From contig MU271457.1 of the NCBI GenBank assembly GCA_021432655.1, positions 1 to 36,400 on the forward strand: 36,400 nt of DNA, written 5' to 3'. Made by a program: the position numbers and the translations under genes. Below, in pieces: positions 12,740 through 35,600 of the stretch. This stretch comes from Atractiella rhizophila (Eukaryota). Every line of letters starts with the position of its first letter. Within the stretch, counting starts at the first letter, position 1. A model generated the notes under the pieces. That model ran no database searches. It saw nothing but the letters and a program-made list of their open reading frames with translations, and had not been told where the DNA came from.

Positions 12740-14168
12740 ATGGTCGGCTCCAGCGTCATCCTCAACACTCTCGTTTTCGCCACCTCCCTTGCCTTCGGCA
12801 GGCTCAAGCCTGTCCCGAGGAGGGGCTCTCACACCATCTTCGCTGGTACTTATAACCAGCAGCTGTTGGCTTTCACCTTCGACACCAACACCGAAAAACT
12901 CGCCCTCGCTGGAAACACCAGCACCACGGCGCCGTTCAACAATCCCTCGCCTTCCTGGCTCGAGAGGACAGGATCAGCCACCAAGTTCCTAGTCACAGAC
13001 GAGAGTGCTGTGGGTCAGATTCAACTGGTGGCTGCTGAAAGCAACAAGTCCGTCGCACTTGTCGCGTCGACCTCTTCCGGAGGCGAGTCCTGTTAACCAT
13101 GCGTATGCGATTAGTGACTGACAAAGTGAGCAGGAAATGGACCTGCTTGGGTTGGTGCCACCTCTGACGGAGATTGGGCCATTGCTGCCAATGTAGGTGT
13201 TCATACTCCGTTTGGTGTGCTATCGCATCCATGTCTAAATTGTTGGAGTAGTACGGAGACGGAACCGTCCTTCCTATCCCTCTCAAGGAAGATGGCACCT
13301 TTGCCTCCTCCTCCCAGCCTCTCATCACTTTCACTGGTGCCACGGCGTCCCATCCTCACCAAACCGTCGAGCTTCCCGGAGGTTCAGTCCTCATCAATGA
13401 TTTGGGCCGTGAGCACACATCTTTCTATTCCAAGTTTGATCGCTGAGGACCGGGTCGAATAGTTGACTTGATCCACGAGATTGCCTTGAACGATGCTGGT
13501 GTCTGGGAAGTCATTGGAAACACCCAAGTCAGTCCCACAGGTAGCGGTCCTAGACACGGAGCTCTCTCAGACGACGGTGCGTGCTTTCTTCGTAGCTTCC
13601 TCCCAAACACAGTCTAAGCATCACTCTCTAGGCAAGGTTTACTACCTCGTCACTGAGGAGGCGAACGAGCTCCAGATCTTCACTGTCGACGAATCCGTCA
13701 AGCCCACCGCTCTGACCCATGTTTCGTCCACCTCTATCCTCCCTCCTGGTGCCGTTCCTTACTCTGGATTCATCCTTGGAGCCGGTGAGCTCCTCAGGGT
13801 CGGCAACCACATCTACATCAGCAACAGGGTACGTTGCTCCATTCGCATGAAGGGAAAACAAGATGATTAAGGAATTGATGGGACAGAACCAAAACACAAC
13901 GCTCGGTGACGCCATCGCCATCTTCGAGCTCACCTCTCCCACCACCGTCTCCGCTCCCACCTTTGTTCGCACGGGTGGACAACACGTGAGGGGCATGCAG
14001 TTCGACAGCACCGACTGCTACCTCATCGCTGGAAACATGATCCAAAGCCCTTACGCTCCTCAGTCCGTCGTTGCTTTCAGACGGGATACTAGAACTGGTG
14101 GCCTCACCTTGGTCGACACCCTCCCTGTCCCTGGAATCAGCGTCACCGGATTCTGGTGGCAGCAGTGA
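12740..14168 (+). CDS. Secreted lactonase-family 7-bladed beta-propeller (6-phosphogluconolactonase / carboxy-muconate cyclase-like), paralog 1
   Basis: Hydrophobic signal-like N-terminus, IFAGTY, NPSPSWL, SSGG, ANYGDG, SHPHQ, NDLG, GSGPRH, YISNR and GGQHVRGMQFD, all lactonase-family motifs. Confidence 0.88.
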
Positions 14169-14494
14169 ACTAAGTCACGTAGTATATGTAGGCGCCTTGC
14201 AATCACAGCGTTTCATTAATGTTCTCCCATATATCTTGCGCTCGTGTCCTCTTCCCTCAGAACCCAAATATTCGGATTATACAAAGGAGAGTTGAACGAT
14301 CTCGATGGACAACGTGACATTCGACAAAGCGAAAAGTCTCTGGGCTCATTGCTGTTAAGATAAGCGTGCTCGGGTGACGATCGCAATTCCTCAAGCAAAC
14401 AATCTGATTATCGAGACAATAAGATTGCAGCGGGTACATATTTTGTCAGTACAGTACCACTTCCAAGTGACCTCGCTCCTCGCAACTCTCACAT

Positions 14495-16001
14495 TTAAGG
14501 ATCGATGAGGAAACTCGTGACCTTGAACAACATCAGATATTTGTGCCGAGAAAGGAAACGAAAGCAAACTGACCTGGGTGCCTTCGGGAAGGTCGATGAT
14601 GGTCGCGAGGGTAAGGCCTCCAGTGTTAGCATCACGCTTGAATACGGAAACGCTCCACGAAAGCATATTGCCAGCGAGGAGGATGGCGTTGTCGTCGGAC
14701 AACTTGATTCCTCTCAGATGCTGTCCTTCACTTCGCACATAGACAGGCTCGGAAACCGTGGTCGGCGAGGTGAGCTTGAAGATCGTGATGGCATCTCCCT
14801 GCTTGTAGTCTTGGTTCCTACCATCCCGTGTCAGCAACCATTGTCACTACCGGTCATGAAAGATAGGCACCTGTTGCTCGTGTACAAGAACTTGCCGTCC
14901 TTGGAAAGCTGAATTTCTGCGGCCGCAAGGACGGTACCGTTGATGGGCACAGCACCAGGGGGAAGCATGGACGTGGTGGAAACGTGGGTAAGCTTGAGCG
15001 GGGTCGTCTTTGAGACCTTGAAGATCTGAAGAGTCTTCTGCAGTTCGCTGAGCAGGTAGTAGACAGATCCTATCCGAAAACACAGTTGATCAGCACTAGA
15101 CAACCACCCAGAGTAATTGGATATACCGTCGCTTGAGAAGACAGAGTGCCTGGGACCGGAACCAGTGGGTGTAACGTCTGTTTTACCAATCGTCTCCCAA
15201 ACTCCCGATTTCTTGTTCAGAGCAATTTCATGAATCTGATCCACTGCAAACCAATTCATTAACAAAACGTTTCAGGAGAAGAAAGAGACCCGTACATCCA
15301 AGATCGTTGATGAGGATGGTTCCAGTGGGTGTGTTCACAGCCTGGTGAGGATGGCTGGGGGCGGTCTTCGACGTGTTGTAGTTGAGGATAGGTTGTTTCA
15401 CAGAGGCTTTGGCGAAGGAGCCATCCGGATTGAGAGGGATGGGAAGGACAGTTCCATCTACTCCAGTCGATCAACATTGCCCATGCTGCCAAAAATGGAC
15501 TCACCTCCATAGTTAGCCGCGATGACCCATTTGCCATCAGCAGTCGATCCGCAATGAGCAGGCCAAACCCCTATTCGGTTCGTACAGTTAGTGTGGGCCA
15601 CTTCATCTACGCGAAATTACCAGCTTACCTCCTGAAGGAGTAGTACCAATGAGCTTCACGCTGTTGCCGTGACGTTCGACAACCTGAATATTGCCGACAT
15701 CGCTCTCATCCGTGACCAACCACCTGTGCTTGGAGGTTTGGCCGGGAACGCGGAAGGGTTCGAGCCAGGAAGGATTGGGGTTGTTGAACGGTGCACCCAA
15801 GGTCTGGTTGTTTACGAGCTTGATGGTGTTGGCGCCGTAGTCATACGTGAACGTCAAGAGCTCGCCGTTGTACGTGCCCGCAAAGATGGTATATGTCTTC
15901 GAAGAAGAACCGGAAGACCCAGAGCCTCCTCCGCTGTTGCTAGGGGCAGCGAACGAGGTCGCGAAGAGGAGAGACTGGAACAAGACGGTCGCAAGAATCA
16001 T
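14495..16001 (-). CDS. Secreted lactonase-family beta-propeller, paralog 2
   Basis: MILATVLFQSLLFATSFA signal-like peptide, Ser/Gly linker, IFAGTY, NPNPSWL, SHPHQ, NDLG, GSGPRH, LYTSNR and EGQHLRGIKLS. The final exon VTSFLIDP-stop ends at 14495. Confidence 0.88.
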
Positions 16002-16908
16002 GGTGGCCGTTCTCGGTGCGCGTTCACGAAAAAAGCAAACTGGAGGGGGAGCTTTGGGATGCCTGGCTTCTTTTATGGGGAGCATGGCTCCCCGCACTGT
16101 CGTGTTCATCCCCAGAACTTGTGCAATGAGGAAGCAGGATGGACGCCCCGGCATCCGAGAGAAGGTGCATAAGGTGACACCTCCATGCCTCGAATGAATT
16201 GCTCGCCCTCCGCACGTTTCAGAATTAGCCTCCTCATTCAATATTCCACAAAACGTCAAATCTTCAAGGCCGTCGTTTAGGTTCGTCTTGGCCCGCTCTT
16301 GCGCCTGATGGGATCTTGGATCCAACGCTAACAGTCAACAGGGCTTGGACGGGACGTGCGATGGCAAAGACAGCTCCATGGGCTCTAATGCAAGGTGTCG
16401 ACCAGAGGGGAGAAGGTTCGTCAGGAATATCGTGCTCTTCTCCCCCACTGCAATTCGCAATATTCGACGGGTAGCATCAAGGTCACGGAGGTCTCTTATT
16501 CAATTCCCCCATACGCACGCATTTCGCCGCGCTCATTTCTGCTTCTCAGTTTCATATCCTCACTGCGGGTAGCTCAAAGATGCCCACAAAGAACCGACGT
16601 ACCGTCTTGTCAAAGCGCCTTCCCAATCAAAAGGAGCAACACAAATCGATCTCAAATTCTCAATCGATGACGGCAAAGATCACGCTTTCCTTTCTTGGAC
16701 GTTTTCAGTTCAAAAGGACGCACGTGATACTTGTGTTCCACGGATGTGCACAGTATGAGTGTTGTTTGAAGCTCTGGAGACTTTTGCCTGTCCATACAAC
16801 ATTGAGAGGGATATATTTCCTTGTTCCTTACGTAAAGTTTGTCGGCAGCTGCCTCCCTAGGAATAGCCACGTGGCGTCCAGAATGCGTAACGGAAACGAC
16901 GACACGAC

Positions 16909-18003
16909 ATGGAACTCTTACCCTTCCCGCCACCCGTCGCGCTCTTCGTCCTCGGCGTCACCTTCCTCCTCCTCTCCATTCTCTTTCGGCGCAGAAATGC
17001 ATCCCCCGACACACGCTCTGGCGCCAAAGCGGTGGTGCTGTTTGGCCCAACAAATGCTGGAAAGACCGCTTTATTCTGCAAAGTGTGCATCATCATCCAG
17101 ACGTTGAAACTTGTAAGCTGACTCCCGTCTCCCTCTTAGCTGGTATATGGATCTGCGCCGGATTGTGTCACGTCTACGAAAGAGAACGAGGGAACGATCG
17201 TGTTTGAGAAGAGCAAGGAGGTGAGCTTGCCATATCTTCGCTTTGTGGGTTATTGGGTTGAGAGTTTTTGAAGGAGGTAGAGGCTGATCCTAATGAGACG
17301 AGAATTGAAGAAGCGGGAGAAGTCGTTGACCTTCCTGGTCATCCCCGCCTTCGAGCTCGGCAGCTTGCTCGACACCTTCCGCACGCCTCTGGCATAGTGT
17401 TTGTTGTAGACGGCTCTGCAGGACTAGGAGGGAAGGCTATTCGTGAAGCTGGAGAGTAAGAGTTTCCCTTCCATGCACTCCAGCAAGCAATTTTGAAACG
17501 CCGGAATGCGCAGGTGTCTTCACATCCTCATATCTTTATTGCGCACCCTCTCAAACCCTCAGCCTCTCCCTCTCTTCATTTACGTCTCCAAATCCGACCT
17601 TTCCCCCTCCCAATCCCCCACTCTCACCATCTCCCGCTTCCGCTCATCACTCGAGCGCGAACTCGAACGACGGCGGCTCTCCAACGTCGGAGGCATCCAT
17701 TCGACTGGGACGACGGGGGTGGGAGCAAAGCTGGAAGGTCTTGAAGACATCTCGTTGGCGAGGAACCAATCGCTGGTGTCGTCCATAAAGAAATTCTTCC
17801 TTGGAGGAACGGTGGAGGTTCAGAAAGGGAATTTGCCCGAGGACGAGAATGAGATCCTCGCGAATGAGGATTTGGCTTTTGAGGAGGAGGGAGAGTTTGA
17901 GTTTAGGAAGCTTAAGGAGCTGGTGGATATTTCTTGGGGCGTGGGAAGTACGAAGAATGATGATGTTGATGCTGATCTTAGAGGTTGGATCAAGAGTGTT
18001 TAG
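16909..18003 (+). CDS. SRP102: Signal recognition particle receptor beta subunit (SRPRB/Srp102)
   Basis: N-terminal TM helix, P-loop GPTNAGKTALF, G3 DLPGHPRLR, IVFVVDG, G4-like SKSD and LERELERRR, which is the SR-beta signature set. Confidence 0.9.
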
Positions 18004-18250
18004 ATATGGACATAATAGATCACTTACTCATGGATCAACGTGAACATGCACACTGATGATAAAGCGAACAAGTCCATTCATTTCATTCCATTTGTTTCCG
18101 TTTGTACATTAATCGTTACATTCCAGCCATTCCGCACAGATCCACACAGACTGAGCATTTTTGAGTTTTCAACGACATAAGCAAAGTAAGACAAAAAACG
18201 AGAAATTCCAAAAACCGTAACAACGGAACAGACGAGTGAACTCGTATGGA

Positions 18251-21200
18251 TTAAGCTTGCGCTTTGAAGTTCCTATAAGGCTCGAAAAGCGACTTCTCGT
18301 GAGGGACCATGTCGTGAGGGAACTTCAACTTGATTCCAAGGTCCTCAGCCAAAAGGTCGGCACCCTTCTCCCCGACCAGCAAGGCAGAGCTGTACGTATT
18401 CGTGCCCTGCAGAGCGTTGAATATCGAAGCACTTGGGACCAGAGGCATTGGGAAGACATACCAAATTGTCAGGGCAGATCGACAGGTCGACCACTTTGAG
18501 TCCCTCAGTTCCTACAAGTTGGTTTATTAGGAGAGAGGTCTAGGAATATGAGGAGGTAGACGAACCAAAAACGTTGAGTCTCTTGTCCACGACACCGCCC
18601 TCCTTGCGCGGTTTCATGGCAGCGGTTCCCAGGCTGAAAAAGCATCAGTCTCGGTTCTCAGTACAACGCAATACGTACCTGTGCCAGGTAGTCTCGACGT
18701 GGTCCGAGATCCATTCATCGATGCGATCGTCGTCCTCCTTGGTGTATTTGACGTTTTGATGCACCTGCGGGAGAGTTATCAGGAAACTACCCACAGGTCC
18801 TCTGCTCACTCACCTTGTTTTCGTCGTAAGGCTTGCCAGGTTTATGCTGCCCGGAACACCATGATCAGATGTAGCTGTACTCGATGATGGACGAATGACG
18901 AACCCATGTGCCCATGCTATATCCGAATATTAGTGACGGTAACCCGAAAGAATGAATACTTACTGAATTCCAGCTACAAGGGCCATCCCGTGTCAGCAGT
19001 AAATTGTTTAAGGTGCAAAACACGCACTGGTAAAGGAGTTGGGCAAGATCTGTTTCGCAGTTTCGATGTCGATGTCGAGACAAGCCGCCTCAGAGGCTGG
19101 GTGGAAGTGAGGGTGATGAGAGGTTAATTCTCCTCTGAAAGCCGCCATCCTCCTCGCTACCTCTCGAGTCTTCTTGTAAGACCATCTGAACGGAGCGAAG
19201 TCGGCCTTTGGACACCAATGAATCAAACAAAGCTTGTTGAGAACCAGCATATTTACCTTATTATTCATGAATCCAGAGTCGAAGAAAGGCTAGGAATAAT
19301 CGGTTTAGCATATCCTTGTAGATGAACCAGAATGCCTCACATCGTCATAGGGGTTCGGAGAGTTGATGTGGATCTTTTACAACGAATCAGCTGAGATCTG
19401 CGACAAATTAAATTACAGACCTTGCCTCGAGATGCTGGATATTCGAGGTATTGGAACCTAGATCCTGCTCAATATGGGAATGGGAGAATAATCTAAAACT
19501 TGCATCGTCATATATTTTCCAGGAGGGAGGAGCGTGTGGTCGGCATAAGCACCAGACACAATGCTGCCAAACATCACAGGCTTGTCAGGCTTGTCCTTGA
19601 AGTAGCGGTTCCAGAGATCGTTGAATTCGGCTAGGTGACAGCTCAGATAATCTACGTTGGGAGCATATACTTACGACCCATCTCCTTCAATTCCTCTTCC
19701 GTTGGCCTAATCTTGAACCCGGCATCGATGGCGTTCGATGAAACAAGAGCTTGTTCTGGCCTGTCTTGCCACTCCTTGAACAGCTGTGTCCCAACTAATG
19801 AGTCCTTTGTTCCTCAGCGGAAGTGGACGTACCTTCTCTCGCACATCTCCGACACCTCTCAAAAAGTCATCCGTAGTAGTCGATTCCTCAGAGACACGGT
19901 AAATCGACAACGTGGTGTAATGATCTTTGATGGAAGGTAAGGGACGCTGTTTACGTGACACAAAGCGCTCACCTTGATACTGCTCTCCGACTCCAGGAAG
20001 ATCAGAAACGACAGGAATCTTGAGCTTGTTCAGGAGTTGCGCATCTCCCACACCAGATCTATTTCGCGTCAAGTCAACTCTTTTCAGAGCCGGAACGCAT
20101 ACCTTTCCAAGATTTGTGGACTTCCCAATGTGCCAGAAGAAAGAACGACGAATTTCCTGGCCTTCACAATACGCTCGTCGACTCGGCTAGCAGGACATCA
20201 ATAAAGATTACGAGCGTGCAAGATAAGTCTCACCCTCCATGCAGATTGCGCGATGGAACCCAGCCAAGTCCAACAGCGCGTGTCCCTTCGAAGATGACAC
20301 GGTTTGCTTTCGCGTTGCAGAGCAAATGAAGATTCTGTTGATTCGCTCGAACAGAGTGGACATATGCCTAGGATAATGTTTAGGTCTTACGACAGGCGAT
20401 TTAGATGAGCATATACCGTCGCGGCATCCTAGGAGACAAAATCAGAATGTGCATGGCTAGAGATGTCAAACGGGGACGTACAGAACGACGCCCAGTGTAT
20501 TTATTGATGTATTTCGCCTATAGATGCTCAGTTAGTCAGATTCTTGAGTAAGTTGTGGTACCTACCCATATTTCACAAGCGTGAGAAATGCCATCAATCT
20601 GGTCCTGTAAATCATCGGTATATGGAATGCCGATGGATTCGGAAGCCCTGAAATCGATCAGACGTTACTGAGGGTAGATAAAAGACAAGTCACCTCAAAA
20701 AGTCATGCGCAAGAGCCGTTCTGACCTTCAATATGAGCAAACGTCGTCAAAAATGTTGTCAACTCACATTTGACCACCATTGGAGATTGCAATCGGTCCA
20801 TCGTATCCGTGGGTGTCATTCACACAAGGTTTTTGGTACTTCTCGAGGCGTTTCATCAACGGTAATAAGTCCTTGGCGGTCCAGCCTAATCAACAAAGTT
20901 ATAGCATCCAATTCCACTTGAGATGACGTCTCACCTTCCGTCTTGAAATCGTCCTAATAAGTCCACTGATGATGAGGGATGCTTTATAGGAATGAAAGAA
21001 GAACTTACCCAATCTGACGGAGAGGCACGCGTGTACATCTAAAGAAAATCAGTAAGGAATATGTCAAACGAAAGACATACTTGGAAGTTGATGCTGCTTC
21101 CACCTCCAAGTATGTTTGCGCACGGAACGATACTTTGCTATTGATGAAGGTCAAACAAACATCATGGTGAACATGGACACCTTACTCTTCCTCTCAGATA

Positions 21201-21667
21201 GCTTGACGCCTAAGAAATATCAGCTTCGAAGCTCTGAGACAAGAGACTTACTTTGGTGTCCACGTAGAATTTAGCTAGATAAACGTAGGGCTAAGCGCTG
21301 TCACAACTTTTGCTCCACTCACCCTTGTCATTGATGCCATTCCTTTGCATATTTCGCACATACACTGCTGGCCTGTAAACCTAAAGCACAAGGTTGGCTG
21401 CCTGAAAGGTTCTTTGATTGTCGTACCCATGGATCATCCTGGTTGTTTGCTGGAAATCGCTTGAACATTTGCCTCATGGATGGAGTCATGCACGAACCTC
21501 CTGCTTCAACAAGTAACACCTGTAAGTTGGGGTCTGCTTTAGCCAATCGACCAGCAACAACACAACCAGCCGGGCCGCCTCCAGCTACAATGACATCGAC
21601 TGGATGATTGTCAGTTCTTTCTGTAAAGCGCACATCAAAAAGCAAGCGCACCCTCAGGAGGGATCAT
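18251..21667 (-). CDS. AOX: Alcohol (methanol) oxidase, GMC oxidoreductase AA3_3-type; about 31 exons
   Basis: MIPPE|VDVIVAGGGPAGCVVAGRLA, LGGGSSINFQMYTRAS, GRRSDAATAY, DLPGVGEQYQDHY, FQYLEYPASRG, RGELTSHHPHFHPAS, HVETTWHSLGT and GTNTYSSALLVGEKGA, all diagnostic of fungal alcohol oxidases. Confidence 0.95.
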
Positions 21668-22727
21668 GGTTAAGAAACTTTTCGTTGCCCTTAAATCACT
21701 TTCAAGTGGTTTCGAAACTTCGAAGGCTTGACTTCCAATGTCCCGGGGCCCTCCTTTTATAGCTGAGGCTAGATGACTGATAGTTATGTGGGGTAGAAAG
21801 GAACGTAGATGAATCCGCGTCCCTCTAACGTCTCCACAGGATCCAAGATATTCTCCATATTCTTCTATATCGAATCTTGGGGAAACAGATGATAAATAAC
21901 CCCGATTACAAGCCTCTATAGTGGGGAACGCGATGAAATCCCAGCCAGAGGTGGTTGTCGCAGTGAACAGAAGTGCTGACTATCAGGGTTAATTCTCCTC
22001 AACTAAAAGTGGTTCGCGAAGTGGTGACATGCAAGAAAAGATGAGCCTATGAAAGAGCGAGACGGCATTAGCTCTACTGGGAGGAACGAGAGAGCTCAGG
22101 CCTGACGCTTGGCGCTGTTGCACCTCAGTCGCCTTCGTGCTTCATGATCTGCCTGAGATAGCTTGATTGCAACCTGATTTTGCCAGATTGCCTCATCCAT
22201 CTGCTTGAGCTCTTAGCTCCTTTCAGAGTGGCAGTTTTCTGGAAAATTTGGAGCGGCTTTAGCTTCAGCTGTCAAGGAAAGAAATTGAAAGCTTCCACCT
22301 CGGGTAGGCCCCTCAGTCTTTCGCTTCGTGCGGTAATTATTGGCCGTGGAGGTGGGGAACCACTCAAATTCCCAAGCCTCTGGCTCGCAGAAGCGTAACT
22401 AGCCATCGGAGCAGCACGAGAGGAAAATAACGAAGAAGAGGAAGATTGTACTGCAATATTGATGACGTGGTAAGAATAACGTGACCTCGTTTCTTCTTCT
22501 GCGCCAAATGGCAAATCAATCTGCGCAATAACAACAAGGGCATCATGACCCCCCAACAAACCATCTTGGGGACTCGTGAGACTAGACATTGACACAAACA
22601 ACATTGCGAGCAAGGTGAACCAGGACTCACAGAAATGTGATCCCTCTTATCAACTATGATTCGCCCTGCTGACTCTCTTCCACACCGCTATCTGATTCTT
22701 CTTTATGATACCTTCCATCAAACTCCG

Positions 22728-24498
22728 TTAGCCTGAAAACTGAAGACAAGGCAATTTACCATTCTGATCATGGCCAGAGGATGCGATCATCCATCTGGCA
22801 CCGTGTGGCTGAATGGATACGGCTTGAACAGGAAAGGTGGTCTCCAAGCTTCCTAAATCAACGAAGCCTTCGTCGTCAAGAGTATACATTGCGATGATGG
22901 TATCTACTGTCCCATTTCTTGCGGGAACTGCCAACAGAAATTGGCAGAAGCCAGAATAAGGTGACATTGGCCCTGTGTCCTCGAGGCCATCTCCAAAAAT
23001 GTTCGGATTAGATGGGAGATGGAGTCCAATGCCTTGAGTGATGGAGATAGATGAAGTTGCATACGTAAGATGGGTGTATGTCGTAAAAAGCCGATTTTGA
23101 GATGTTAAGATCGCGGAAAGGTTCCTGTCCGTCTTTTCGTCCTCAAGCGCTTCAAGCTCCTCCAACGCATCCGGTTCCCAGAGTACAATTCTCGGAGGGA
23201 TGTCCATTGTGGTAAAATCTGCTTTTCTATGGCCGTTCTTGCTAAGAATTGACAAGTTGCTACTGGATAGGAAGGAAACAAAATCAATCCAGTGAGCGTG
23301 GACGTTTCTCGTCGACCACCAAGGAAATTGCATGAGCGGAGCGTCTCTCTCCGTTGGCTTCTTGTCCTTTTGTTCCCGACGCTGCTCATAAGTTTTTAAG
23401 AGGTACTCATCCACCTTCCATATCTTGACAGCGCCATCTGATGCCCCCGATAGCATAAGAGGTAAGGAGGAATGCCAGTCCTAGGAACGCTTAGTGGCAG
23501 GCTGAAACTGAAACCGCTGACATACAAGGGACAATACGGGAGCGCTGTGCCCTCCTGCACCGCTGAAGATTGCGACGAGCTGACCTGGGGGAGGCAAACC
23601 GGTTGCCTCTTGTGAACGCGTTGAACGAGACCGTTTCTGCTGGCGAGTCGGAGGGATAGATATATCCCAAAGAAGTATTTGATTGTCGAAACCGCAACTG
23701 GCGAGAAGATGCGGATGAGAAGGCGAAAACTTGAGGTCCATGATTTCCTAGTTCTTTAATAAGCCAAGTAACATCGAACCTGCGATACGTACGCCACCAT
23801 GACCTCCAAGGTAAAGCAACTGCGTTCCAGCTGTAGCGTGAACGATATAAATCTTCCTATCATCTCCACCGACCGCAATGAGAGGGTCGAGGGTGTCGGG
23901 ATTCACTACAAAACATATTCAGCACTATCGATTCTCGATGTGTGAGGCAGCAGCTTACCAGAGCATGCAATGGCTCTAAAATTCTCCGTTTTCTGAAATT
24001 CGCCAGTATAATTGAGGTCCGCGTCAGAAATAAACTGGGTAATAAAGTAGTTGAGCTTACGATCTCTGATTCGAACAGCAGGAGCTCTTCAAGGCAATCT
24101 TGATCGTCCTGAAGGTTAACCGCTAGGACCTGTTAAAAAGTTAGTTGTGAGCGACATGCGCGGTTTTATTTCGTATATTTTACCTTACAACCTCCACACA
24201 AAGCAGCCCAGTCTCGGAACTGCCGAAAAGGACTGTGACGCCAGTAAGGGAAGAAAGTAATGGCATTGTAACCATCTATCAAGTACCCGTTGTTAACAAG
24301 TTAACCTAAGAAAGGTCACCTACATGCCTTCGAGAGTCAACAGAAAGCTCTCAAAAGTTGAAGTGGAATACGCACTTGTGTGTGTGACAAAGGTTTCCAT
24401 TCATCCACAATTTGGTGTTTCTTGCCATCGATATGAAGGAGATCGAGCTCATTTGATAGAGATTCCGAGTTTTGGGAGTATGGTACCTGGCTTTCCAT
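22728..24498 (-). CDS. EED: Polycomb repressive complex 2 WD40 subunit EED/ESC, apparently complete coding copy (copy A)
   Basis: ENFRAIACS..NPDTLDPLIAVGG, LGGHGGEIMDLKFSPSHPHLLASCGFD, LVAIFSGAGGHSAPVLSLDWH and QFPWWSTRNVHAHWIDFVSF...ILSK...IVLWEP are collinear with the conserved EED/ESC blocks. The start ATG at 24498 and a 4-nt micro-exon are inferred. Confidence 0.82.
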
Positions 24499-24595
24499 TG
24501 GTCACTTGGCAAGTAACAAAGTGAATCTGGGAATGAGAGGGCCAGATATCCCTGATGGTCTTGAAAGTAGCTTCGCGAAAACAACTTGCTCAGAT
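23298..24595. repeat. 1.3-kb direct duplication, copy A
   Basis: Matches 25686-26984 apart from 7 substitutions and one 1-bp indel found by eye. Confidence 0.97.
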
Positions 24596-24667
24596 CCTTA
24601 TATAAAAAGCACGACGGGTTTTGACCATGACTCACGCATGTACTTTTGAGCACTTATATCACTGCGA

Positions 24668-24908
24668 ACAACAGCCCTATCAGAACTCTGAGCACACAAC
24701 CAGAATACGCGTGTCGGCGCCTTTCGAACCGCATACAACAAAGCCTATTTGAAAGACGAAAAAAAAAAAATTGTTTTCCTTACTCAATTGACTTCTTGGT
24801 CCACAAAAACCCCATCAAAATTTTGAGCATACCACCAGAATACGCGTGTCAGCACCTTTCCAACCGTATACAATAAAGCTTATTTAAAGGACAAAAAATG
24901 GTTCTCTT
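24668..24908. repeat. Two diverged tandem units with a period of about 135 bp inside the element
   Basis: ACCAGAATACGCGTGTC occurs at 24699 and 24834 with collinear flanks. The differences are mostly C>T or G>A. Confidence 0.88.
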
Positions 24909-24991
24909 CCATGACTGAGTCAAGTGACCGACTTTGGCACTTTGACAAAAATTTCCTTACCTACTCAAATAAGGTGGCAAGGTAAAGAGTT

Positions 24992-25075
24992 TGCGCGATG
25001 GTGTAGTTGGTGTATGGTTGGGAGTTGAGTCATGACTGATTGTTGTTAGTCTGGGTTTGATTCTCAGTCATGTCA
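24992..25075 (+). pseudogene. Degenerate tRNA-like sequence (tRNA pseudogene or SINE-head-like Pol III promoter)
   Basis: A-box TGGTGTAGTTGG at 24999-25010, T-arm CTGGG-TTTGATT-CTCAG at 25051-25067 (B-box with CpG>TpG), an imperfect acceptor stem and a TTTT run at 25078-25081. The anticodon cannot be assigned. Confidence 0.65.
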
Positions 25076-25655
25076 CATTTTGTCACTGCCAAATCCTGTT
25101 GTGTGCTGCGTGACCGCAATTTCTTTAGAGCTTTCTGAGACTTCTCATGTCATGCGCCAAAAACTGTTGTTTGCCAACTATGAGGGAAAGCGAGCAAGCA
25201 TTCATGCAAATATGCTTCCTAACAGTCTACCATAGTATCCCTGAGCCTGTTAGCATCAAATCAAATCAAGCAAAAAAAGCATAGGTGTGTGGACTCTGGC
25301 TTATATATTCTTCACTCATCATTTTGTTACGTGCAGCAAGCTACACTCTCATGCCACGTGCAATTCAGAGAAATCAAAACAAAGAAATCGAGAGCATCGA
25401 TCCAAACCGCATCAATGTCTGCAGCAGGAGGCACCACTACACCAAGGTCGACCTGTAAGAGAGAGGCAACGCCCTGTACGTTTTAATCCTACTCCACCTA
25501 CTCCATCTCAACATGAGACAAGATCAACTAGGGCTCCACATCAGTGTCAGTGGCACCGTCAAAGCTCTTCACTATCTATATCATCACAACCAGCTCGACG
25601 ACATTGGAGACAGCATTCACCCTCCGCTGAGGAGTACAGTGAAGAAGAAACCCGA

Positions 25656-26887
25656 TCATACCCATCCTCTCCTGATCCTGATGGTGTGGACGTTTCTCGT
25701 CGACCACCAAGGAAATTGCACGAGCGGAGCGTCTCTCTCCGTTGGCTTCTTGTCCTTTTGTTCCCGACGCTGCTCATAAGTTTTTAAGAGGTACTCATCC
25801 ACCTTCCATATCTTGACAGCGCCATCTGATGCCCCCGATAGCATAAGAGGTAAGGAGGAATGCCAGTCCTAGGAACGCTTAGTGGCAGGCTGAAACTGAA
25901 ACCGCTGACATACAAGGGACAATACGGGAGCGCTGTGCCCTCCTGCACCGCTGAAGATTGCGACGAGCTGACCTGGGGGAGGCAAACCGGTTGCCTCTTG
26001 TGAACGCGTTGAACGAGACCGTTTCTGCTGGCGAGTCGGAGGGATAGATATATCCCAAAGAAGTATTTGATTGTCGAAACCGCAACTGGCGAGAAGATGC
26101 GGATGAGAAGGCGAAAACTTGAGGTCCATGACTTCCTAGTTCTTTAATAAGCCAAGTAACATCGAACCTGCGATACGTACGCCACCATGACCTCCAAGGT
26201 AAAGCAACTGCGTTCCAGCTGTAGCGTGAACGATATAAATCTTCCTATCATCTCCACCGACCGCAATGAGAGGGTCGAGGGTGTCGGGATTCACTACAAA
26301 ACATATTCAACACTATCGATTCTCGATATGTGAGGCAGCAGCTTACCAGAGCATGCAATGGCTCTAAAATTCTCCGTTTTCTGAAATTCGCCAGTATAAT
26401 TGAGGTCCGCGTCAGAAATAAACTGAGTAATAAAGTAGTTGAGCTTACGATCTCTGATTCGAACAGCAGGAGCTCTTCAAGGCAATCTTGATCGTCCTGA
26501 AGGTTAACCGCTAGGACCTGTTAAACAGTTAGTTGTGAGCGACATGCGCGGTTTTATTTCGTATATTTTACCTTACAACCTCCACACAAAGCAGCCCAGT
26601 CTCGGAACTGCCGAAAAGGACTGTGACGCCAGTAAGGGAAGAAAGTAATGGCATTGTAACCATCTATCAAGTACCCGTTGTTAACAAGTTAACCTAAGAA
26701 AGGTCACCTACATGCCTTCGAGAGGTCAACAGAAAGCTCTCAAAAGTTGAAGTGGAATACGCACTTGTGTGTGTGACAAAGGTTTCCATTCATCCACAAT
26801 TTGGTGTTTCTTGCCATCGATATGAAGGAGATCGAGCTCATTTGATAGAGATTCCGAGTTTTGGGAGTATGGTACCTGGCTTTCCAT
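25656..26887 (-). pseudogene. EED: C-terminally truncated EED/ESC copy (copy B), reading into the element (...STRNVH-TIRIRRGWV-stop)
   Basis: Same exons as copy A up to NVH, then a 9-residue element-derived tail. It lacks the last about 190 codons (22728-23297). Confidence 0.8.
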
Positions 26888-26984
26888 TGGTCACTTGGCA
26901 AGTAACAAAGTGAATCTGGGAATGAGAGGGCCAGATATCCCTGATGGTCTTGAAAGTAGCTTCACGAAAACAACTTGCTCAGAT
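25686..26984. repeat. 1.3-kb direct duplication, copy B
   Basis: Offset 2388-2389 bp from copy A (23298-24595). Confidence 0.97.
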
Positions 26985-27047
26985 TACCTGAATGCGGAGT
27001 GTTAAGGTTTGGCATTTTAAGCGTGGAGCAACAACGAAAAGAAAGGC
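26888..27047. promoter_or_regulatory. Compact divergent intergenic region (putative bidirectional promoter) between EED copy B and PRP46
   Basis: Only 160 bp separate the two inferred head-to-head ATGs (26887 minus, 27048 plus). Confidence 0.55.
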
Positions 27048-29057
27048 ATGGATTCAACAGCTTCTGCGCCAATGATGGCCTTGCCGCCTTTAGAGCCCTT
27101 GTTTAAGAAGTCTGCTAAGAGGTCTAGAATAGTGTTTTCGGGAAATGAAGGGCTGGACTGGAAAGAGGATGAGCGAAGGTGAGCTTTGCATTTGCCTTTG
27201 AGCTGGGTTTTGTGGCATGGTAGGGCAAAGAGCATGCTCTGTTCTAATTTCAAACATCTTACTATACCAGACACTGATATTTCCAAGTGTCTGTGTCCTC
27301 TCACGCGTTTAACTGGGTTGTGCTGTCCTCCAGATGGAGTTTGAAGAGGCGGCGCCTGCTTTGACATCTCCTATCGCGTTAACAAGGCTTGTCTGATGTT
27401 TCTCCGTTGTAGTACCAAGATACGGATAGCGTCAACCATAAACTCGGAATACGCTCACACGCGGAACCTGCCTCGATCTCTGCTCATGCAGCAGACGCCA
27501 CTGGGGCCAGCTCCCGCGAAAGCAATAACAGGCGGAGAGGGACCAAAGCGGCTTATGATAGAAGGTTGTATCGTTTACGCCTCGAAAATTTCCCTATTTT
27601 GACAAGTGTTTTCCAGGGCCAAATGGTGCTCCAAATTCGGTGGTAGACTCGGTTGCTCTGTAAGTCCAATGCTGTTCGGACTGAGCGTGCTTAATCTGTG
27701 AGGCAGATCTACATTGCCTGCCCAACAAGCGCCGTCATTACTGTCACAGTCTTTGATTCAGCGGAAAGAGGCGCGAACACTGAAACCAAAATTTCATCCA
27801 CAATGGAAGCTTATGAGGGTGATTTCTGGACATCTTGGTACATGTTTTCTCTAAACTTCTGCTCTCTAAACTTATTTTTCTGCAAGGCTGGGTGCGTAGT
27901 GTTGCCGTTGAGCCAGGAAACAAGTGGTTTGTCACCGGAGCAGGAGACCGTGTCATCAAAGTTCGCTTTTCTCTCTCATTGTAGTGTGCTCCTCCTCACA
28001 ATCAGTAGGTTTGGGATCTGGCATCTGGAGAGCTCAAGATATCGCTAACGGGTCATATCTCGACCGTCAGAGGACTTGCGGTCTCAAACCGCCACCCTTA
28101 TCTTTTCAGCTCTGCGGAGGATAAAGTGGGTTTATTCGCTCCCTTGGTCACATTCGCTGACGCATCTTCAGATGGTCAAATGCTGGGATCTGGAACAGAA
28201 TAAGGTCATCCGACATTATCATGGGCATCTGTCAGGCGTCTACTCTTTGGCGTGCGTCACTGTGTTATCTCCACCTCCTAGTGCTCAAAGCGTGAACATA
28301 GCCTACATCCGACCCTCGACATTCTCGTAACAGCAGGACGAGATGCGGTAGCTCGCGTACGCATCGTTCTCTTTCACCGTCCACTCGAAGATTCAATAAT
28401 CCATTATAGGTCTGGGACATGCGAACGAAAGCTGGTATTCATGTGCTCTCTGGCCACACAGCTACTATTTCAGCCGTAGCTTGCCAAGACTCCGATCCTC
28501 AAGTGATTACAGGGAGCATGGACAGCACGGTTCGGTTAGTCTCACGACCTTCTTCTTTGAAGTGAGTCTGATATAGTCGCAGGTTGTGGGATCTAGCCGC
28601 TGGCAAAACAATGGTCCAGCTCACACATCACCACAAATCAGTGCGAGCTCTCGCAGTCCACCCAACGGAATACTCCTTTGCATCTGGCTCTTCTGGAGGG
28701 AATAATATTAAAAAATGGAAGTGCCCAGAAGGAGCATTTGTTCACAACTTCAGTGGCCACGACGCCATCATCAACACCGTCAGCGTTAATGAGGAAGGTG
28801 TATTTTTCAGTGGCGGTCCGTTTCCCATGAATTGCATTATTCGTTATATCGTGCTCACGATGAGAACAGGAGACAATGGCTCGATCTCTTTGTGGGATTA
28901 CGGAACTGGTCTCCCGTTCCAAACCTTCAATGACATACCACAGCCTGGATCATTGGATTCTGAGGCTGGGATCTTTTGTAGCACTTTCGATCAGACAGGG
29001 ACGAGACTTATCACTGGAGGAGCGGATAAGACGATCAAGGTATATAAAGAAATGTAA
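27048..29057 (+). CDS. PRP46: Pre-mRNA splicing factor Prp46/PLRG1 (WD40, NTC/Prp19 complex)
   Basis: [14 protein letters not shown]-terminal motif, [52 protein letters not shown] and [37 protein letters not shown]; stop at 29057. Confidence 0.95.
27190..27369 (+). ncRNA. Candidate intronic H/ACA-like snoRNA in PRP46 intron 1
   Basis: The intron is 234 nt, against about 50 nt elsewhere. It has hairpin 27191-27229, H-box-like AGAGCA at 27229-27234, further hairpins and ACA at 27364-27366. Confidence 0.3.
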
Positions 29058-29104
29058 CTTGGGTAAAGTTGCAATGGGGATCCAACAGTGCTTACAAGAA
29101 AAGT

Positions 29105-30515
29105 TCAATCAGTGTCCAAAGCTTCCTTCTTTTTCGACCTTTTCTTTTTCTTAGAACTGTCTATCACACCCTCATCTTCTGGCCTGACTTCCTTTCTCGC
29201 CTTCTTCGACCTCTTTTTGCTAGGTTGCTCCTCAGGTCCTGTATCTTGCTCCTCTCGCACAATCGTCCTCTTTGATCGTTTCTTCTTGCTCCGACCCTCT
29301 TCATCCGATACCCCTTCTTTCGACTTCTTCTTGCTCTCCTTTCTTGGAGCCTCATCCTCGTCGCTAGCTTCACGCTCTTCCTCCGGCTCCATGGGCTTAC
29401 TACTTTTGTTCTTTGGCACACCTTCATTGTCACCGTCAGTATCGTATAATGCTAGGCCTTCGGTATTAGCGCGTCACTTCAACCAAAGAAGAGAGCGCCC
29501 ACCTTCTTCCTTCTTCTTCTTCCTCTTCTTCCCACGCCTCTGCTCCTCGTCGCTTACACCATCGCGTTCCTCCTCTGATCGATACCTTGGCTTCCTACCT
29601 GGCGCGTCAGATTCAGATCTCTCTTCGTCTTCTTTCCGTTTACGCTTCCTCTTCTGCCTCTTCTCCTTCTTCTTCGCTAATGTTTCTTCCTCTTCCACCT
29701 CAGAATCTGCAACCAGGAAGCCATTTAAACTTGCACTGTCGTCCTGATCCACCGTCTCTAAAGGATGTGCGCGAAGCTCTTCCGCATCCGTCAATACGTC
29801 CATATCTGCATCCATGATTTCAGGAGTGGCATCGCGCTGCTTCTTCTTCTTTTTTGTTTTGTTGGCAAGAACGTCCACTGCTTCCTCACTCTCGCTGTCC
29901 GGTCCCTTCTCCTTCTCCTTTGTCACCGCTTGGGGGTCCCGCTTTCGTGGCTTCGGGCGAGGTCGGTCCTTCTTGGATTTATCGTCCACTTTGGATGTGA
30001 GGTCGATTCCTTGGTGCTTCGCGTTAGCTACAATATCGTCGAAGAGTCCTGGTGTGCCTTCACATGTATTTAGAGCTTATTTGAATGAGTGGGCAAGCAT
30101 ACGATGAGTGACAAGTCGAAGGTCCTCCACCCCTACGGTTTTCCGTCCAGCATGCAAAGCATATTGTTCTAGAGTGCTTCCCAGAGATTTCGCCTGATTG
30201 AACACGAGCTCGGTAAGCGTAGCGCAGAAGCCTTCGGAGGCTGCAAAGCCCAATTCGACTTCTACAGGAACACTCAGGGTCAGCTGTTACGCTCACAAGC
30301 TAGGATGAGAATTACGCGCCAGATTCTTCTAGTATCTAGATACATCAATGCTCGTTAGTAAAACGCGTCATTTTGAGAAAGATTGTGGCGACTTGCCTTT
30401 GAGACAGTGTACCACATTGCGGTTTTGAGCTCCTACAGGAGAAATGAATGAATTCTGAAAAAAAAATTACACGAAAACGCACATCTTCCTTTGGCGACCC
30501 ACCCCTCTGAGCCAT
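29105..30515 (-). CDS. MHF1: CENP-S/MHF1 histone-fold protein with a long Lys/Glu/Arg-rich C-terminal extension (about 383 aa in this model)
   Basis: Spliced translation ELKTAMWYTVSKILEESEVELGFAASEGFCATLTELVFNQAKSLGSTLEQYALHAGRKTVGVEDLRLV matches the CENP-S pattern. It continues in phase into ORFs 29474-29989 and 29105-29419. Confidence 0.8.
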
Positions 30516-30880
30516 TGTGAAAGGTACTCGCGTATAAGTTCGGTTCTTTTTATCTGAAGAAAGTTGCCAGATACCATGACTCGACGGAAGCGAGGATTGT
30601 GTTGTTTGCTTCTTACTTCTCCCCAACTTACTGCCTTCGAGTTCTTACCATCAAGTCACAATCAGTCTGTAGTGGTTGAATCTCGGAATTAGGACAAGAG
30701 CATGTAGGCAGCGCGCGAGATAAGGGATATCTCGTTTGTTTCCCTCTCGACCAAGGTCTTCACACAATGGAAGCCTTCAAAATGATTTGTAACTATCGAC
30801 AGTCGTGCAGGAGAAAAGAGTACTGAGCATGTGTGGAACGTGCTAGTCGGACGCCATAACGTATTCTGTGTTGCAATTCA

Positions 30881-31169
30881 GGAGGAGTTGATCAAGTCGG
30901 CTGATCTTCACTATTGGGGAGACGTTGAGGATGAGCTCAGGTGAGCCTACTTCAACCTTCTTGGGCCGGTAGTAGAGCTATTGGAGGGAAACAGTACCTT
31001 CCAGAAACGTTTTCCATTGGACTGGTCATCAAGTCTCGTCTCGACACTGGCAACAGGGAGGCAAAAGCTGAGTCACGTGACGAGCAGAACCGCCAATATT
31101 TTTGCCGAAAGCATGACCTGGATCTGGCGTGACAACCCACCTGACCAGCACCCGTTTATTGAATCGTAA
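30881..31169 (+). CDS. Possible small spliced hypothetical gene or gene remnant (5' end unresolved)
   Basis: EELIKSADLHYWGDVEDEL joins through a GTGAGC...CAG intron in phase to TFQKRFPLDW...HPFIES-stop. No family recognised. Confidence 0.3.
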
Positions 31170-32610
31170 TCTCGTAAGCTTTTCGGATTGAATGTTTATT
31201 TAGGTTTTCTAGCGCACCCTGCAATCCTGATGTTGAGCCAGGTTGAACACTTCCCGAACCAATTTTTTTGGTGTTGCTTGCCCGATTCCCGATTCACCGA
31301 TTGAAGGAGCTCCGGTAGCGTGTTAGCAACGCTTCATCCATGCGCCTGAAGGTGGACAAGTGTCGCTGAGCGCAAAATTCGTCAGAGCTTTTGGGCTGAA
31401 CTGAGCAATTTTCTCCACCTTAGCGCTGACATCGCTGATATCCAACTGGGCCAAAATACGAACCACCTTATTTGGAGATTAGATCATAGGCCACCCGGAC
31501 TCGATAGACTGTCCGCTCGCTCTTTCGATCCCATGCCCAACTCGCTCCACATAGGAAGCTGACCTTACTGGAAGGTCGCGTTCGGACATCACTTCAGCAT
31601 CAATATGCAGGCATATGTGAAAACCGAACTGCTAATGGGTGAGTGAGGTTCTGAGAGAGGTTGTATGTACACCGTGCTCTTCGGAATAAAATGGAATCTG
31701 CGAGCAGAGTATTGACAAGTCGCAAACGTACGCTGAGAAGCTGAGAATCTTGAGAAAATGCCCGAACCTTTTTCCCGTCAAACTTAAAACTGTTGCCACC
31801 GCTAAAGCCAAACGTTCTCCCTGACGCGAGGCCTGACGTCCCCTAGCATCCGCTAGCATCGAAGCTCCTGAGCTGAGCAGATATACCCTCTATCTGTTTG
31901 ACCTCATTCTCCCTTCGATTCAGCCGCGAGAATCGACTGAGAGCGGTCTACGGTCTTGTGGGCACACTCAAAGGGGTTCGTTCCCATTGAGAACATCATT
32001 TTGCGGGAGTACCTGGAGCATTCTTGCAAGGGTAAGCCTTTTCATTCTACGCTTCATCGTCGGTAAAAGGGGGGTCGTGCTCACTTGGGGTGCTCACAAA
32101 GCGTTGTCGTTACCTCAAACGACTTGTGTTGAACAGAGGATCGCGATTTGCGTCGAAGTCGCTTGCCCTCGTTCCCTGTTGCGTCAAATCCTATCCTCGT
32201 CGCAATCCGCCAGCCCTCGCTCCCGCCTATTGGTGACCTCGCTATCAGGTTGGGCTTACGATACCTTAAAACCCGAAAACGAGACATACGACAAGTCATC
32301 ACTTTCTTTCAATACCTACCACTCACCTCAAAACCGAGATAGTGAACACAAGATTTGGAGCGCATATCATAGTAGTTATTGTCATTTATTGTTAAGACTT
32401 TTCTTTATCCCAGTTAAGAGGTGGAGCTTGGGTCTAGAAGCACTTGTGACGAAGTATCGTTTAATTCTTTACTCCCTTTTTGTTCATTTCTTTCCCTTTC
32501 TGATCCCGAACAGTAAGTGCCACTTGGTTCACGCAGTTCCTGCTCCTGAGCTGATTGTCTGCTAGCGTGTACGGGTCAATCCAAAGGGATTCAGTATTTC
32601 GACGCTCCAA

Positions 32611-35600
32611 ATGTCACTACTGGTTTCACCATCGTCACCTCCTAATCTTCTCTCGAACCTCGCGACGACGTCAACGACATCCACCAATACAGCCGTACCT
32701 AACACTGTCCTCTCCGATCCTCCCATCGTTGATCCAGCGTTGGTCGCCGTAGCTACTTCTGCAGCTGCAGCGGTCATGCCTCTCCTCCGACGCGGAACGA
32801 AGGACTCCTCGACAGGGAGTGACAGATCCGCTCCTCCCTCCCCCAACGCTGGAGCGCTCGCGCAGCTGCAGCCTCAATCGCCTCAGCGTTCTGATTCCCG
32901 AGCATCTGACATCATCTCCGTTTTCACCACGAAACGCGCCGGGACACCAATCCCGTCATCGAACTCCCATCCTGCAAAGCTCAACCTGAAGCTCTTCAGA
33001 AGCAACCCTAGCGCCGAAAAGAAGAAGTCGGCGAACAAACTTAATAAGCGGAATCGCATTCAGCAGCCTTCAGCAGAAGAATCACTACCTACTAACGACT
33101 TTGGAATGTTGAAACAAGAGCCTGGTTCACCACAAGTCATACCGAAAAGGAAAGCGTCTCTCTATGCTGGACGACGAGGTAGCATGAGCGAGAGAGCTTT
33201 GGACAAGCTAGTGGAGAACCGTGAAGGCGGAAGGTTTAGGGTGCACCAGAAGCAAGAGTCTGTAGTATCCGTACAGATCCTCAATCCTGCCGAGTCCGAG
33301 CATGGTGTTGTCGACGACAGGAAGGATAGCGAAATGTACCAACAACCAGCGCTTGCTTCCTCGACTTCATCCTATTCGCCGGATTTCCCTTTTGGCGGAC
33401 TACCGTCACCTACAACATTGAACTCAGTTCCAACGCCTCCGCAGGTCTCAACCCCTGTTACAGAAGATGGAAGCAACATGTCCGGGTCTCGCAAGAGAAC
33501 CAGCTCCAGATTTTCCCCCTCAGAAGCGCTGCATTCAGTCATTGGTGCTGTGCGCACGAGGAGACCTTCCAGCAGGACTCGCACTTTGTCTGGCAACGTT
33601 TCTCCCACGCCGCCTCCGATTGTCACCAGCCTTTCACTTGAAGAATCGAGCACGAACACGCCGTCCGCATTTGATGATGGAACGAGCCAGCCGTCCAGCC
33701 CAGTTACTCCCTCATCTTCCCCGGAGAAGCCCCGCCGTCAGCCAATTCGCAGAAGCAGTCGAGCAATGTCGATAGAGTCCAACATCTCGGAACGATCACG
33801 GAGAAGTTCGACCCCACTTCCAACTCCAGCAAAGCTAGTTAAAAAGCCAAAGGTACCGGAGAGTCCTTCTAAACAGGCGAACAGCATGATACGCCTCGGG
33901 TTGGGACTTCCCAGCTCAGCCGCCAACTCTCGTATCCTCAATGATGGAGCTCTCAAAGCTTCAGCTCAAATGAAACCCTCTTCATCGAAAGATTCTAATG
34001 GATCCAAGTCAGCTGCAGAAATTGAGGCGGATAAGATAACGCATAATAGGGCTCAGGCGTTGTCGATTTTAGAAGGAGGTTCCGAAACTGGCTCCAGCAT
34101 TCGAGGTACTTTGGGAGACTCGGACTCGGATGATAATGACGTTGCCGTGGACGATGACGAGCTTGACATGGACTTCTCCGATCCTCTCGATTTCCCTCGA
34201 CCCGTCCTTCCCGCGACTACCCCAAGCCCTGGTCGAGGCTCCCCAGCCCTGCATAGTGAGAGCGGACTGCCAATAGCACCTCGAGTACGGCGGAGGAGCT
34301 CTTCGAACAGGGGCTCAAATGGGAAAGGTAAAGGACGAGAACTGGCCGGAGTTATAGAAGTTCCCGATTGGGCTAGGGTCAGCGATTTCATCAAGAAAGA
34401 ATTAGGACGCGGCTGCTTGAGCAGAATGAGCGGAGTAGCCATAAGTACCGGCAATTTGCAGGGGAAGCAGATGCGTCGACTGGAGAGCGATGAAAAGGAG
34501 CTGTGGAGTGCTATTGCTGATGGTGTCGTCCTCGTACGGTAAGTTAGTCTTCACCACGTTTCTCTTTTGCTCACTCCGGAACCACAGACTCCTCACCCAC
34601 ATAGCTCCGTATCTGGGACTGTCAGATCCAGACCGTCGCGATCTGCCGATGGCTCGAAGGCAAAATATCATCTCTTTTGTTCAAGGTGTGCAAACCCTAG
34701 GAATACGACCTCAAGATCGTTTCCAACTAGAGGATCTGGAGGGCCGACGTGGTGCTGATGGTTGGGACACCGTTCTTCGATGCCTTCTCGCTTTAGAGAA
34801 ATGGTGTTACGAACAAAGAACTGATGTGCCATTCAAGGCATCACTGGAACCGCCTCCAGAGATAAATCGCGATAGCGGACGATCATCCGTCGAGTTTCCT
34901 AGGAGCGACGATGAACCAACTTTCCCTATTTCCCCTCGACATACCCCTCCTCCTCCTCATACTCCTTCATCACTAGCCTCCCGTCACTCCTTATTAACAA
35001 GTTCGACCAAAATGGTCAGGGCGAGGAACTCGAACCAAGAACCCAGTTCGTCGAGTGGAGCATCTTCACGGTTGAGTTGGGAGCGGTCATCCACCGAAAG
35101 CAGACCAGACTCGCGGATATCCCAAGTTACAGCCACGACCTCTGCCCCGAGTTCGAATGGAGGTGTAAGGAAAAAGACTCTGTCCGCAGCTGAATCTCCA
35201 AGATTGCCGACGGACTACTTCACAGGGGTACCGGAAGACAGAGAATTCCTTGCCACTTCTCCCCGACGCTTACGAGTGTCTATCGCACGAAATGCGTCCC
35301 ATCACGCTTCGAGATCGTCTCCCTATTCTCCCCCTACGTCCCCAACCCTGCCTTCAGCCCACAGTCCAAATCGACCCTCTCCGCTGCGCACTCCCGAATC
35401 TACAACAGGGCCTTCTGTCACCTTCGCCCCAGAAGTTGACTCGCCACCATCCCGAAAAAACATGTCCACACGCATTTATGGCGATCGAAGGATGTCGGAG
35501 TCTGCCATTGATATATTGACAAGGGTGGACGAGTCAGACGAAGGAACGTCTGCGAACAGTAGTCCAAAGCGAAACCCCTCGGAGCCAAAACCAACGAACG

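Follow-up and report, generated by a model that had tools for sequence, protein, structure and literature searches.

A truncated, candidate Helitron-like insert between two copies of a 1.3-kb host gene segment in Atractiella rhizophila

In the Helraiser system, the left end suffices to start transposition, and both truncations and bypass of the 3′ end occur (PMC4778049). Gene capture by Helitrons through filler DNA leaves junction homologies of 2–13 bp (PMC6544945), and template switching, either as fork stalling and template switching/microhomology-mediated break-induced replication (FoSTeS/MMBIR) or as gap filling, is described for transposon-linked duplications (PMC8277862). Here we describe a locus of Atractiella rhizophila in which the 5′-terminal part of a dispersed repeat lies between two nearly identical copies of the promoter-proximal 1.3 kb of a WD40 gene. 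The window, i.e. the whole stretch of DNA that was analysed, is 36,400 nt of contig MU271457.1, and all coordinates are positions in this window. On balance we consider it probable that a Helitron-like 5′ end was inserted at A^T and that a template switch at a microhomology then dealt with its broken end.

Duplicated segment, insert and junctions

A self-BLAST of the window aligned 23298–24595 with 25686–26984 as one long direct repeat; the 1299 alignment columns contain 7 mismatches and 1 gap (99.38% identity), and the same repeat was recovered by a repeat finder and by global alignment. Copy A (23298..24594) holds, on the minus strand, about 42 nt of upstream DNA together with exons 1–6 and the initial 183 nt of exon 7 from the host gene, and copy B (25686..26983) holds the same host segment on the same strand, truncated and attached to the native divergent promoter. 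In the global alignment the substitutions between the copies fell at 23333, 23744, 23922, 23940, 24038, 24138 and 24575, and copy B carried one additional G at 26724. The spacer between the copies, insert X, spans 24595–25685 (1091 nt), and there is no N in the window. A first-pass annotation made from the letters alone had already noticed the near-identical copy of the preceding 1.3 kb and the 1091-bp insert between the copies, and the self-BLAST confirmed both.

At the left junction (24594/24595) the letters ...CTCAGA are followed by TCCTTATATA..., and at the right junction (26983/26984) the letters ...CTCAGA are followed by TTACCTG, where the host DNA beyond the integration site begins with a T at 26984 and continues to 27029 as the rest of the region between two divergent WD40 genes. 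Since a T is common to both junctions, the end of the repeat can also be read as 24595/26984. The first-pass annotation had pointed out that the whole unit lies between an A and a T; the letters are as described, but this context follows automatically from the repeat, and only the native host site, A^T, is informative.

Contigs from public runs were collected on 22000–28000, where runs X1 and X2 derive from one sample and X3 and X4 were used as further runs. The word shares were 0.71, 0.64 and 0.07 for X1, X2 and X4, respectively, and the 6-kb stretch was matched by 713 contigs of X1, 540 of X2 and three of X4, two of the latter on the insert. Summed contig depth over the insert was 18,000–33,000 in X1 and 4,700–17,000 in X2, with the flanks at about 140–530, which places the insert at roughly 50–100 times flank depth, although contig depth is not copy number, as the depth tool itself warns. 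The insert is hence not single-copy, in agreement with the first-pass annotation. Within the 36.4-kb window, self-BLAST found no second copy of it.

The left boundary of the insert is shared with other copies. Matches beginning at 24594 and preceded by unlike DNA were found in 13 contigs of X1 and 12 of X2 (agreement 0.42, median loose length of about 190 nt), and an A precedes the terminus both here and in all 13 + 12 boundary contigs; no contig start at 24595 was seen among the matches listed (91 further ones exist). The many unlike flanks at one boundary indicate that many copies have this exact left end behind an A at different places, and the last letters of the flanks of the other copies are AT-rich. 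The integration junction at 24594..24595 (plus strand) thus consists of a host A followed by the element 5′ terminus TC, and the suggestion that the copies share the exact TC boundary at 24595 after an A holds in both runs.

The right side of the insert is cut short. Four contigs of X1, three of X2 and one of X4 matched up to 25691 and then read on into one identical continuation (agreement 0.99–1), so other copies continue past this point, whereas the copy in the window switches to copy B; the 3′ part of the element has been replaced by the duplicate, as the first-pass annotation had it. The six letters GTGGAC at 25686..25691 (plus strand) are common to the element family and to the start of the host segment (23298–23303) and form a microhomology at the breakpoint, and the chance of a junction overlap of at least 6 nt is about 0.0013. 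The insert differs from all or nearly all family contigs at no fewer than 16 substitution sites and in 2 one-letter indels. In sum, 24595..25685 (plus strand) is the 5′-terminal 1091 nt of a dispersed high-copy element with an AT-rich terminus and a 5′ boundary shared behind an A, and the copy in the window is truncated with a 6-nt overlap.

Two further features of the family were observed. Inside the insert, two 96-nt units on the plus strand (24668–24763 and 24803–24898) are 82% alike and 135 nt apart. In a contig of run X2 with a depth of 94.8, close to that of a single haplotype, the first 20 nt of the element (24595–24614) stand twice in tandem behind an A, which reflects either a nested insertion or a terminal re-initiation.

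Element class and mode of origin

In the favoured reading, the element would have integrated by its normal 5′ terminus at A^T in the divergent promoter and 5′ untranslated region (UTR) of the minus-strand WD40 gene, and the element copy would have broken off after about 1.09 kb. The GTGGAC microhomology would then have linked the element to a host position that lies 1297 nt upstream of the integration point, where the free 3′ end inside the element may have started DNA synthesis with a copy of the gene's upstream region as template. Such synthesis would have run back to the integration point and doubled the promoter-proximal 1.3 kb (exons 1–6 and part of exon 7). The junction has the features of a microhomology junction, with six shared nucleotides and a copied segment 1.3 kb away, and the earlier proposal that the element was continued, by a template switch or a join, in the adjoining host DNA gains support from this overlap at the insert-to-B junction. 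We infer the element class, a polymerase switch rather than end joining, and the timing of the event. Two other routes were considered and rejected, namely a sister-chromatid exchange, after which copy B should be followed by another, complete element that the window does not contain, and a tandem duplication that came first and received the insert later exactly at its joint, which would be too coincidental.

As the template we slightly prefer an empty homologous chromosome over the same molecule during integration; in this favoured version the homologue without the element would have served to repair a break in a hemizygous insertion. Although 890 of the 1297 nt (69%) are exonic, only two of the seven substitutions between A and B fall in exons (Fisher p = 0.035). 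At three of the seven sites (23333, 24038 and 24138) the B letter was found in contigs that are continuous with the single-copy DNA left of A. Over the 1.3 kb left of A, 7 differences separate the window from those contigs, six of them substitutions and one a 5-nt indel, which is the same density as between A and B, and the A/B divergence of 0.6% equals the divergence of the window from the contigs next door. The differences between A and B therefore look allelic. Two observations weigh against the favoured version. Both exonic differences, of which there are only two, change the amino acid, which is unlike purifying selection, and some changes are apparently private in comparison with the other samples, with 23333 and 24138 in A and 26132, 26310 and 26328 in B. 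Six of the seven substitutions are transitions; mutation of the duplicate in the manner of repeat-induced point mutation was considered, but the changes do not run in one direction and are too few for a conclusion.

The strongest alternative, which we nevertheless regard as unlikely, is a rolling-circle integration with an incomplete incoming strand, the 3′ end of which was primed on the same molecule 1.3 kb upstream. A and B would then have been identical at birth and have diverged since, so this alternative departs from the favoured reading only in timing and template. The precise 5′ junction behind an A with T as the next base of the host, and the 6-nt overlap at the other junction, agree with it as well; private changes in both A and B are what divergence after the duplication would be expected to produce, and the distance of the insert from its family, in the substitutions and indels given above, fits an insertion that is not recent. 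It accounts poorly for the scarcity of differences in exons, as the truncated copy B should drift freely, and for a divergence that matches the allelic divergence next door, and no such case turned up among the titles and abstract openings of our non-exhaustive literature search. A half-completed Helitron integration, in which only the 5′ end was joined and the host finished the event by microhomology-primed synthesis on upstream DNA of the target, is likewise put forward as a tentative idea. If it were true, the event would have duplicated the target on a kilobase scale and attached a fragment of the gene, promoter included, to a Helitron 5′ end; such a product would be the precursor of a gene-capturing Helitron, and Helitron activity could in this way lead directly to the duplication of genes nearby.

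The A–insert–B arrangement itself is probably a real structure. Assemblers need long overlaps and the insert-to-B junction offers 6 nt, so this junction must exist in reads, and the A-to-insert junction is a proper family terminus. The absence of depth over 25819–26421 in X1 and X2 arises because the shared contigs were placed on copy A. Several observations nevertheless point the other way. No contig crossed the A-to-insert or the insert-to-B junction among the 27 pieces listed (1275 further ones exist). A contig covering 22842–24216, from the left flank into A, had a depth of 291.6 in X1 and 201.9 in X2, at the level of the unique flanks (278–351 in X1 and 180–290 in X2), which speaks against an extra copy in that sample, and it mixes A and B letters. 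The bins 24211–24411 and 26623–26823, by contrast, sum to 468 in X1 and 358 in X2 and would fit three copies in two haplotypes; the contig depths thus contradict one another.

The corresponding alternative is an assembly or library artefact, in which the arrangement would stem from a chimeric molecule or from the erroneous merging of an allele that has the element with an empty one, at a repeat of the 100-copy class; we consider this improbable. The sample of X1 and X2 is heterozygous, with half-depth variant contigs at 22158, 27220 and 27293–27467. The artefact would also suit the unbroken 22842–24216 contig with its flank-level depth and mixed letters, the equality of A/B and allelic divergence, and the lack of a novel-junction contig among the pieces listed. 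On the other hand, assemblers join on long overlaps and not on 6 nt, a chance abutment would share at least 6 nt only 0.13% of the time, the window is free of N, and the depths fit three copies where both arms of an indel bubble were kept. Moreover, a half-depth contig in both runs replaces 51 nt at 26916–26966, in the 5′ region of the gene, by 14 nt; this replacement belongs to the second haplotype of the sample and occurs in neither A nor B, so that A and B are not simply the two alleles of this sample. At 27293–27467, X1 yielded two contigs, one identical to the window and the other differing from it 10 times over 175 nt; the two haplotypes diverge strongly in this stretch, and the window equals one of them exactly.

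With moderate confidence we assign the insert to the canonical Helitrons, a class that rests on a single terminus. The terminus begins with TC (TCCTTATATA), as at the 5′ end of canonical Helitrons, and the copy in the window is preceded by GA and not by TA, TTAA or TWA. On the plus strand, frame 0 has no stop after 25251 and is open from 25254 to the break, and the three minus frames contain 16, 25 and 20 stops, which together fit a 5′ leader and the start of an open reading frame (ORF) on the plus strand; a minus-strand ORF was rejected on its 16–25 stops per frame. Two letters of the insert, at 25379 and 25381, are extra in the window and missing from all other contigs there, and when they are removed the frame reaches a family ATG at 25351, so the copy in the window is frameshifted and degenerate. 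In the family, an ORF seems to come after a leader of 750 nt, and the copy in the window ends about 340 nt into its ORF. The five best-supported sites at which the family differs from the window (25396, 25408, 25477, 25561 and 25588) all lie in the same phase (coordinate mod 3 = 1), which is the third codon position in no open frame and possibly a matter of chance.

Against a Helitron stand the searches for coding potential and for a terminator. The open frame of the insert has only about 146 codons in low-complexity, T-poor DNA and, by a rough estimate, is not significant on its own. No Pfam family, including Rep/helicase, reverse transcriptase or endonuclease, was matched by any of the 12 ORFs of the insert. 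The insert ORF had no relatives among longer proteins or, as a 177-aa query, among proteins of similar length, a search of metagenome loci by protein gave 598 pattern matches with none confirmed, an exact 22-nt pattern of the insert had no match in metagenome contigs, and an Atlas search with the ORF returned no usable match. The right end of the unit carries neither CTRR nor a hairpin, its last four letters being CAGA. Two weak matches of the ORF in a representative library (E-values of 4e-4 and 8e-4, to proteins with PLD and HepT domains) were judged to be low-complexity noise.

Structural searches were also negative, with no Rfam match across 24400–25900 and no special fold at the 5′ end of the insert. 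The last 60 nt of the unit fold at −2.1/−2.5 kcal/mol, and 198 and 191 of 200 shuffled sequences folded more stably. No terminator-like hairpin was present at the ends of A and B or at the breakpoints, and the idea that the unit ends at a look-alike Helitron terminator was dropped for this reason. Of the description as Helitron-like in the first-pass annotation, the TC end behind an A, the A^T of the host and the multi-copy state stand, whereas the copy in the window lacks CTRR and hairpin and has no Rep/helicase match.

The main rival at the level of element class is a non-long terminal repeat (non-LTR) retrotransposon, which we consider distinctly unlikely. Insertions of 5′-truncated long interspersed nuclear elements (LINEs) are precise at one end, are truncated at a microhomology at the other, and lie between direct repeats of the target. 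The insert, read on the minus strand, would be the 3′ end of such an element placed by target-primed reverse transcription, with 24595 as the family 3′ end, GTGGAC as the microhomology of the 5′ junction, and A and B as an extremely long target-site duplication. The exact common end, the truncated microhomology end and the flanking direct duplication are a textbook footprint of this process, and the 20-nt tandem terminus of another copy (joint 24614 to 24599) could be a re-priming at the 3′ end. There is, however, no A-run or simple repeat at the 24595 end, the 16–25 stops per minus frame over 1.1 kb would require a very long 3′ UTR, and on the plus strand no stop interrupts the open frame over the final 440 nt of the insert. 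Neither a reverse-transcriptase nor an endonuclease match was obtained with Pfam in any ORF of the insert, and a target duplication of 1.3 kb is about a hundred times the usual length.

Finally, a chimeric Helitron consisting of the insert and an already captured B, transposed into the site as one unit, would explain the TC behind an A and the T after its end, and Helraiser without its hairpin does end at fortuitous sites (PMC4778049), but we regard it as highly implausible given that the target would have to coincide, to the nucleotide, with the end of the captured fragment in that same gene, that the end has no terminator-like hairpin or CTRR, and that the depth of B is not raised, as it would be had the unit multiplied.

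Host gene and neighbourhood

The host gene lies on the minus strand and has short introns of the fungal type with GT..AG joints, as seen in spliced contigs of run X3. From these joints and the sequence, exon 1 was placed at about 24552–24376 and exon 2 at about 24275–24184, where the boundary between the two is approximate, followed by exon 3 (about 24129–24061), exon 4 (about 23992–23959), exon 5 (about 23905–23793), exon 6 (about 23747–23526), which has a WD40 match in Pfam, and exon 7 (about 23480–22757), all on the minus strand. The single-copy rest of exon 7 (22757..23297, minus strand) is continuous with copy A, and the ORF 22728–23480(−) crosses the repeat boundary. Below exon 7, a 48-nt intron at 22709–22756, skipped by a spliced X3 contig, is followed by more exons. 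Candidates for the start codon are the ATG at 24498 or a downstream ATG in another frame.

The product is a WD40 protein, as judged from the Pfam match on exon 6 and from WD40 clusters in the Atlas, where Basidiomycota were the commonest. Chains of EED were the longest match among solved structures (query 10–77) with an E-value of only 0.015, and the stronger structure matches were to generic single WD40 repeats; the 250-aa ORF of exon 7 returned no homologue in a search among longer proteins. EED is thus a reasonable but putative name for this gene, whose likeness to EED is weak.

A transcript contig of X3 on the minus strand reaches 26941, and the plus-strand spliced contig of the divergent WD40 gene starts at 27030; although contigs cannot fix true transcript ends, these positions place the integration point (26983/26984) in a divergent promoter/5′ UTR region of at most about 88 nt. 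In copy B, the frame of exon 7 enters the insert and stops after nine foreign codons, such that the ORF 25656–25868(−) ends ...STRNVHTIRIRRGWV*. Copy B is accordingly predicted to keep its promoter and to encode a truncated protein, and copy A together with 22757–23297 appears from the sequence to be the only full-length coding copy, lying behind the insert and 2.4 kb from the native promoter.

The neighbouring gene at 27030–29057 (plus strand) is a divergently transcribed multi-intron WD40 gene with GT..AG joints at 27176/27411, 27562/27615, 27659/27707 and 27836/27886 in X3 contigs, and its Pfam matches were WD40, Prp19, WDR3 and a Gbeta-type propeller. Further along, 29001–30100 shows a strong strand skew (GC skew −0.28, AT skew −0.37), and a minus-strand ORF at 29474–30076, with a high content of Lys, Glu, Asp and Ser, matches no Pfam family. 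Three long open frames on the plus strand of 31837–36400 (242, 658 and 652 aa, the third of which extends past the window edge) likewise had no Pfam family. The other pieces of host genes were a Na/Ca-exchanger domain at 4134–4673 (plus strand), a 7-bladed lactonase at 14391–15271 (minus strand), and an FAD/NAD-binding N-terminus at 21328–21663 (minus strand), the best match of which was lycopene-cyclase-like.

Comparison with known systems

Natural intermediates of capture are seldom available, since many rounds of transposition have usually passed by the time a captured fragment is observed. If the locus is what we take it to be, it would combine a precise 5′ junction made by the transposase with a microhomology junction made by the host at the opposite end, and the captured DNA would still be beside its source. 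A probable chromatin regulator, the EED-like gene, would have been split into a promoter-bearing truncated copy and a promoterless full-length copy, and this split is predicted to affect expression measurably. All of this is drawn from a single locus of one assembly, and a non-exhaustive search of titles and the beginnings of abstracts found no Helitron 5′ fragment flanked by a kilobase-scale target duplication.

The insert resembles a 5′-truncated LINE insertion in its precise end, its truncated microhomology end and the direct repeats on both sides, and differs from one in the evidence for its orientation, in having no tail, and in a duplication far longer than usual. With HELPO1 and HELPO2 of Pleurotus ostreatus (PMC4289320) it shares the TC 5′ end, an apparent A^T integration behind an A, the AT-rich letters beside the insertion site, the multi-copy state and the occurrence of truncated copies. 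Unlike those elements, the locus has only a 5′ end, with no CTRR, subterminal hairpin or Rep/helicase ORF within reach. A direct duplication of 1.3 kb around the insert also sets it apart from Helitrons in general, which make no target duplication.

The bypass events of Helraiser are similar in that, upon failure of the terminator, the right end is formed elsewhere and host DNA becomes attached to the element (PMC4778049). In the events reported there, the attached DNA is the downstream flank of the donor site and ends at a new tetranucleotide by a T, whereas here the element is attached to the target's own upstream flank, and the attachment took place at a microhomology inside the element. 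In its short junction homology (6 nt at the insert) and in the copying of nearby host DNA onto a broken element, the locus resembles the filler-DNA (PMC6544945) and FoSTeS/MMBIR (PMC8277862) models. It differs from them in that there the filler lies inside an element that keeps both ends, while this element has lost its 3′ part and the copied segment is a tandem duplicate of the flank. With its ingredients known from these three reports (PMC4778049, PMC6544945, PMC8277862), the locus is an unusual single case of a known type of event.

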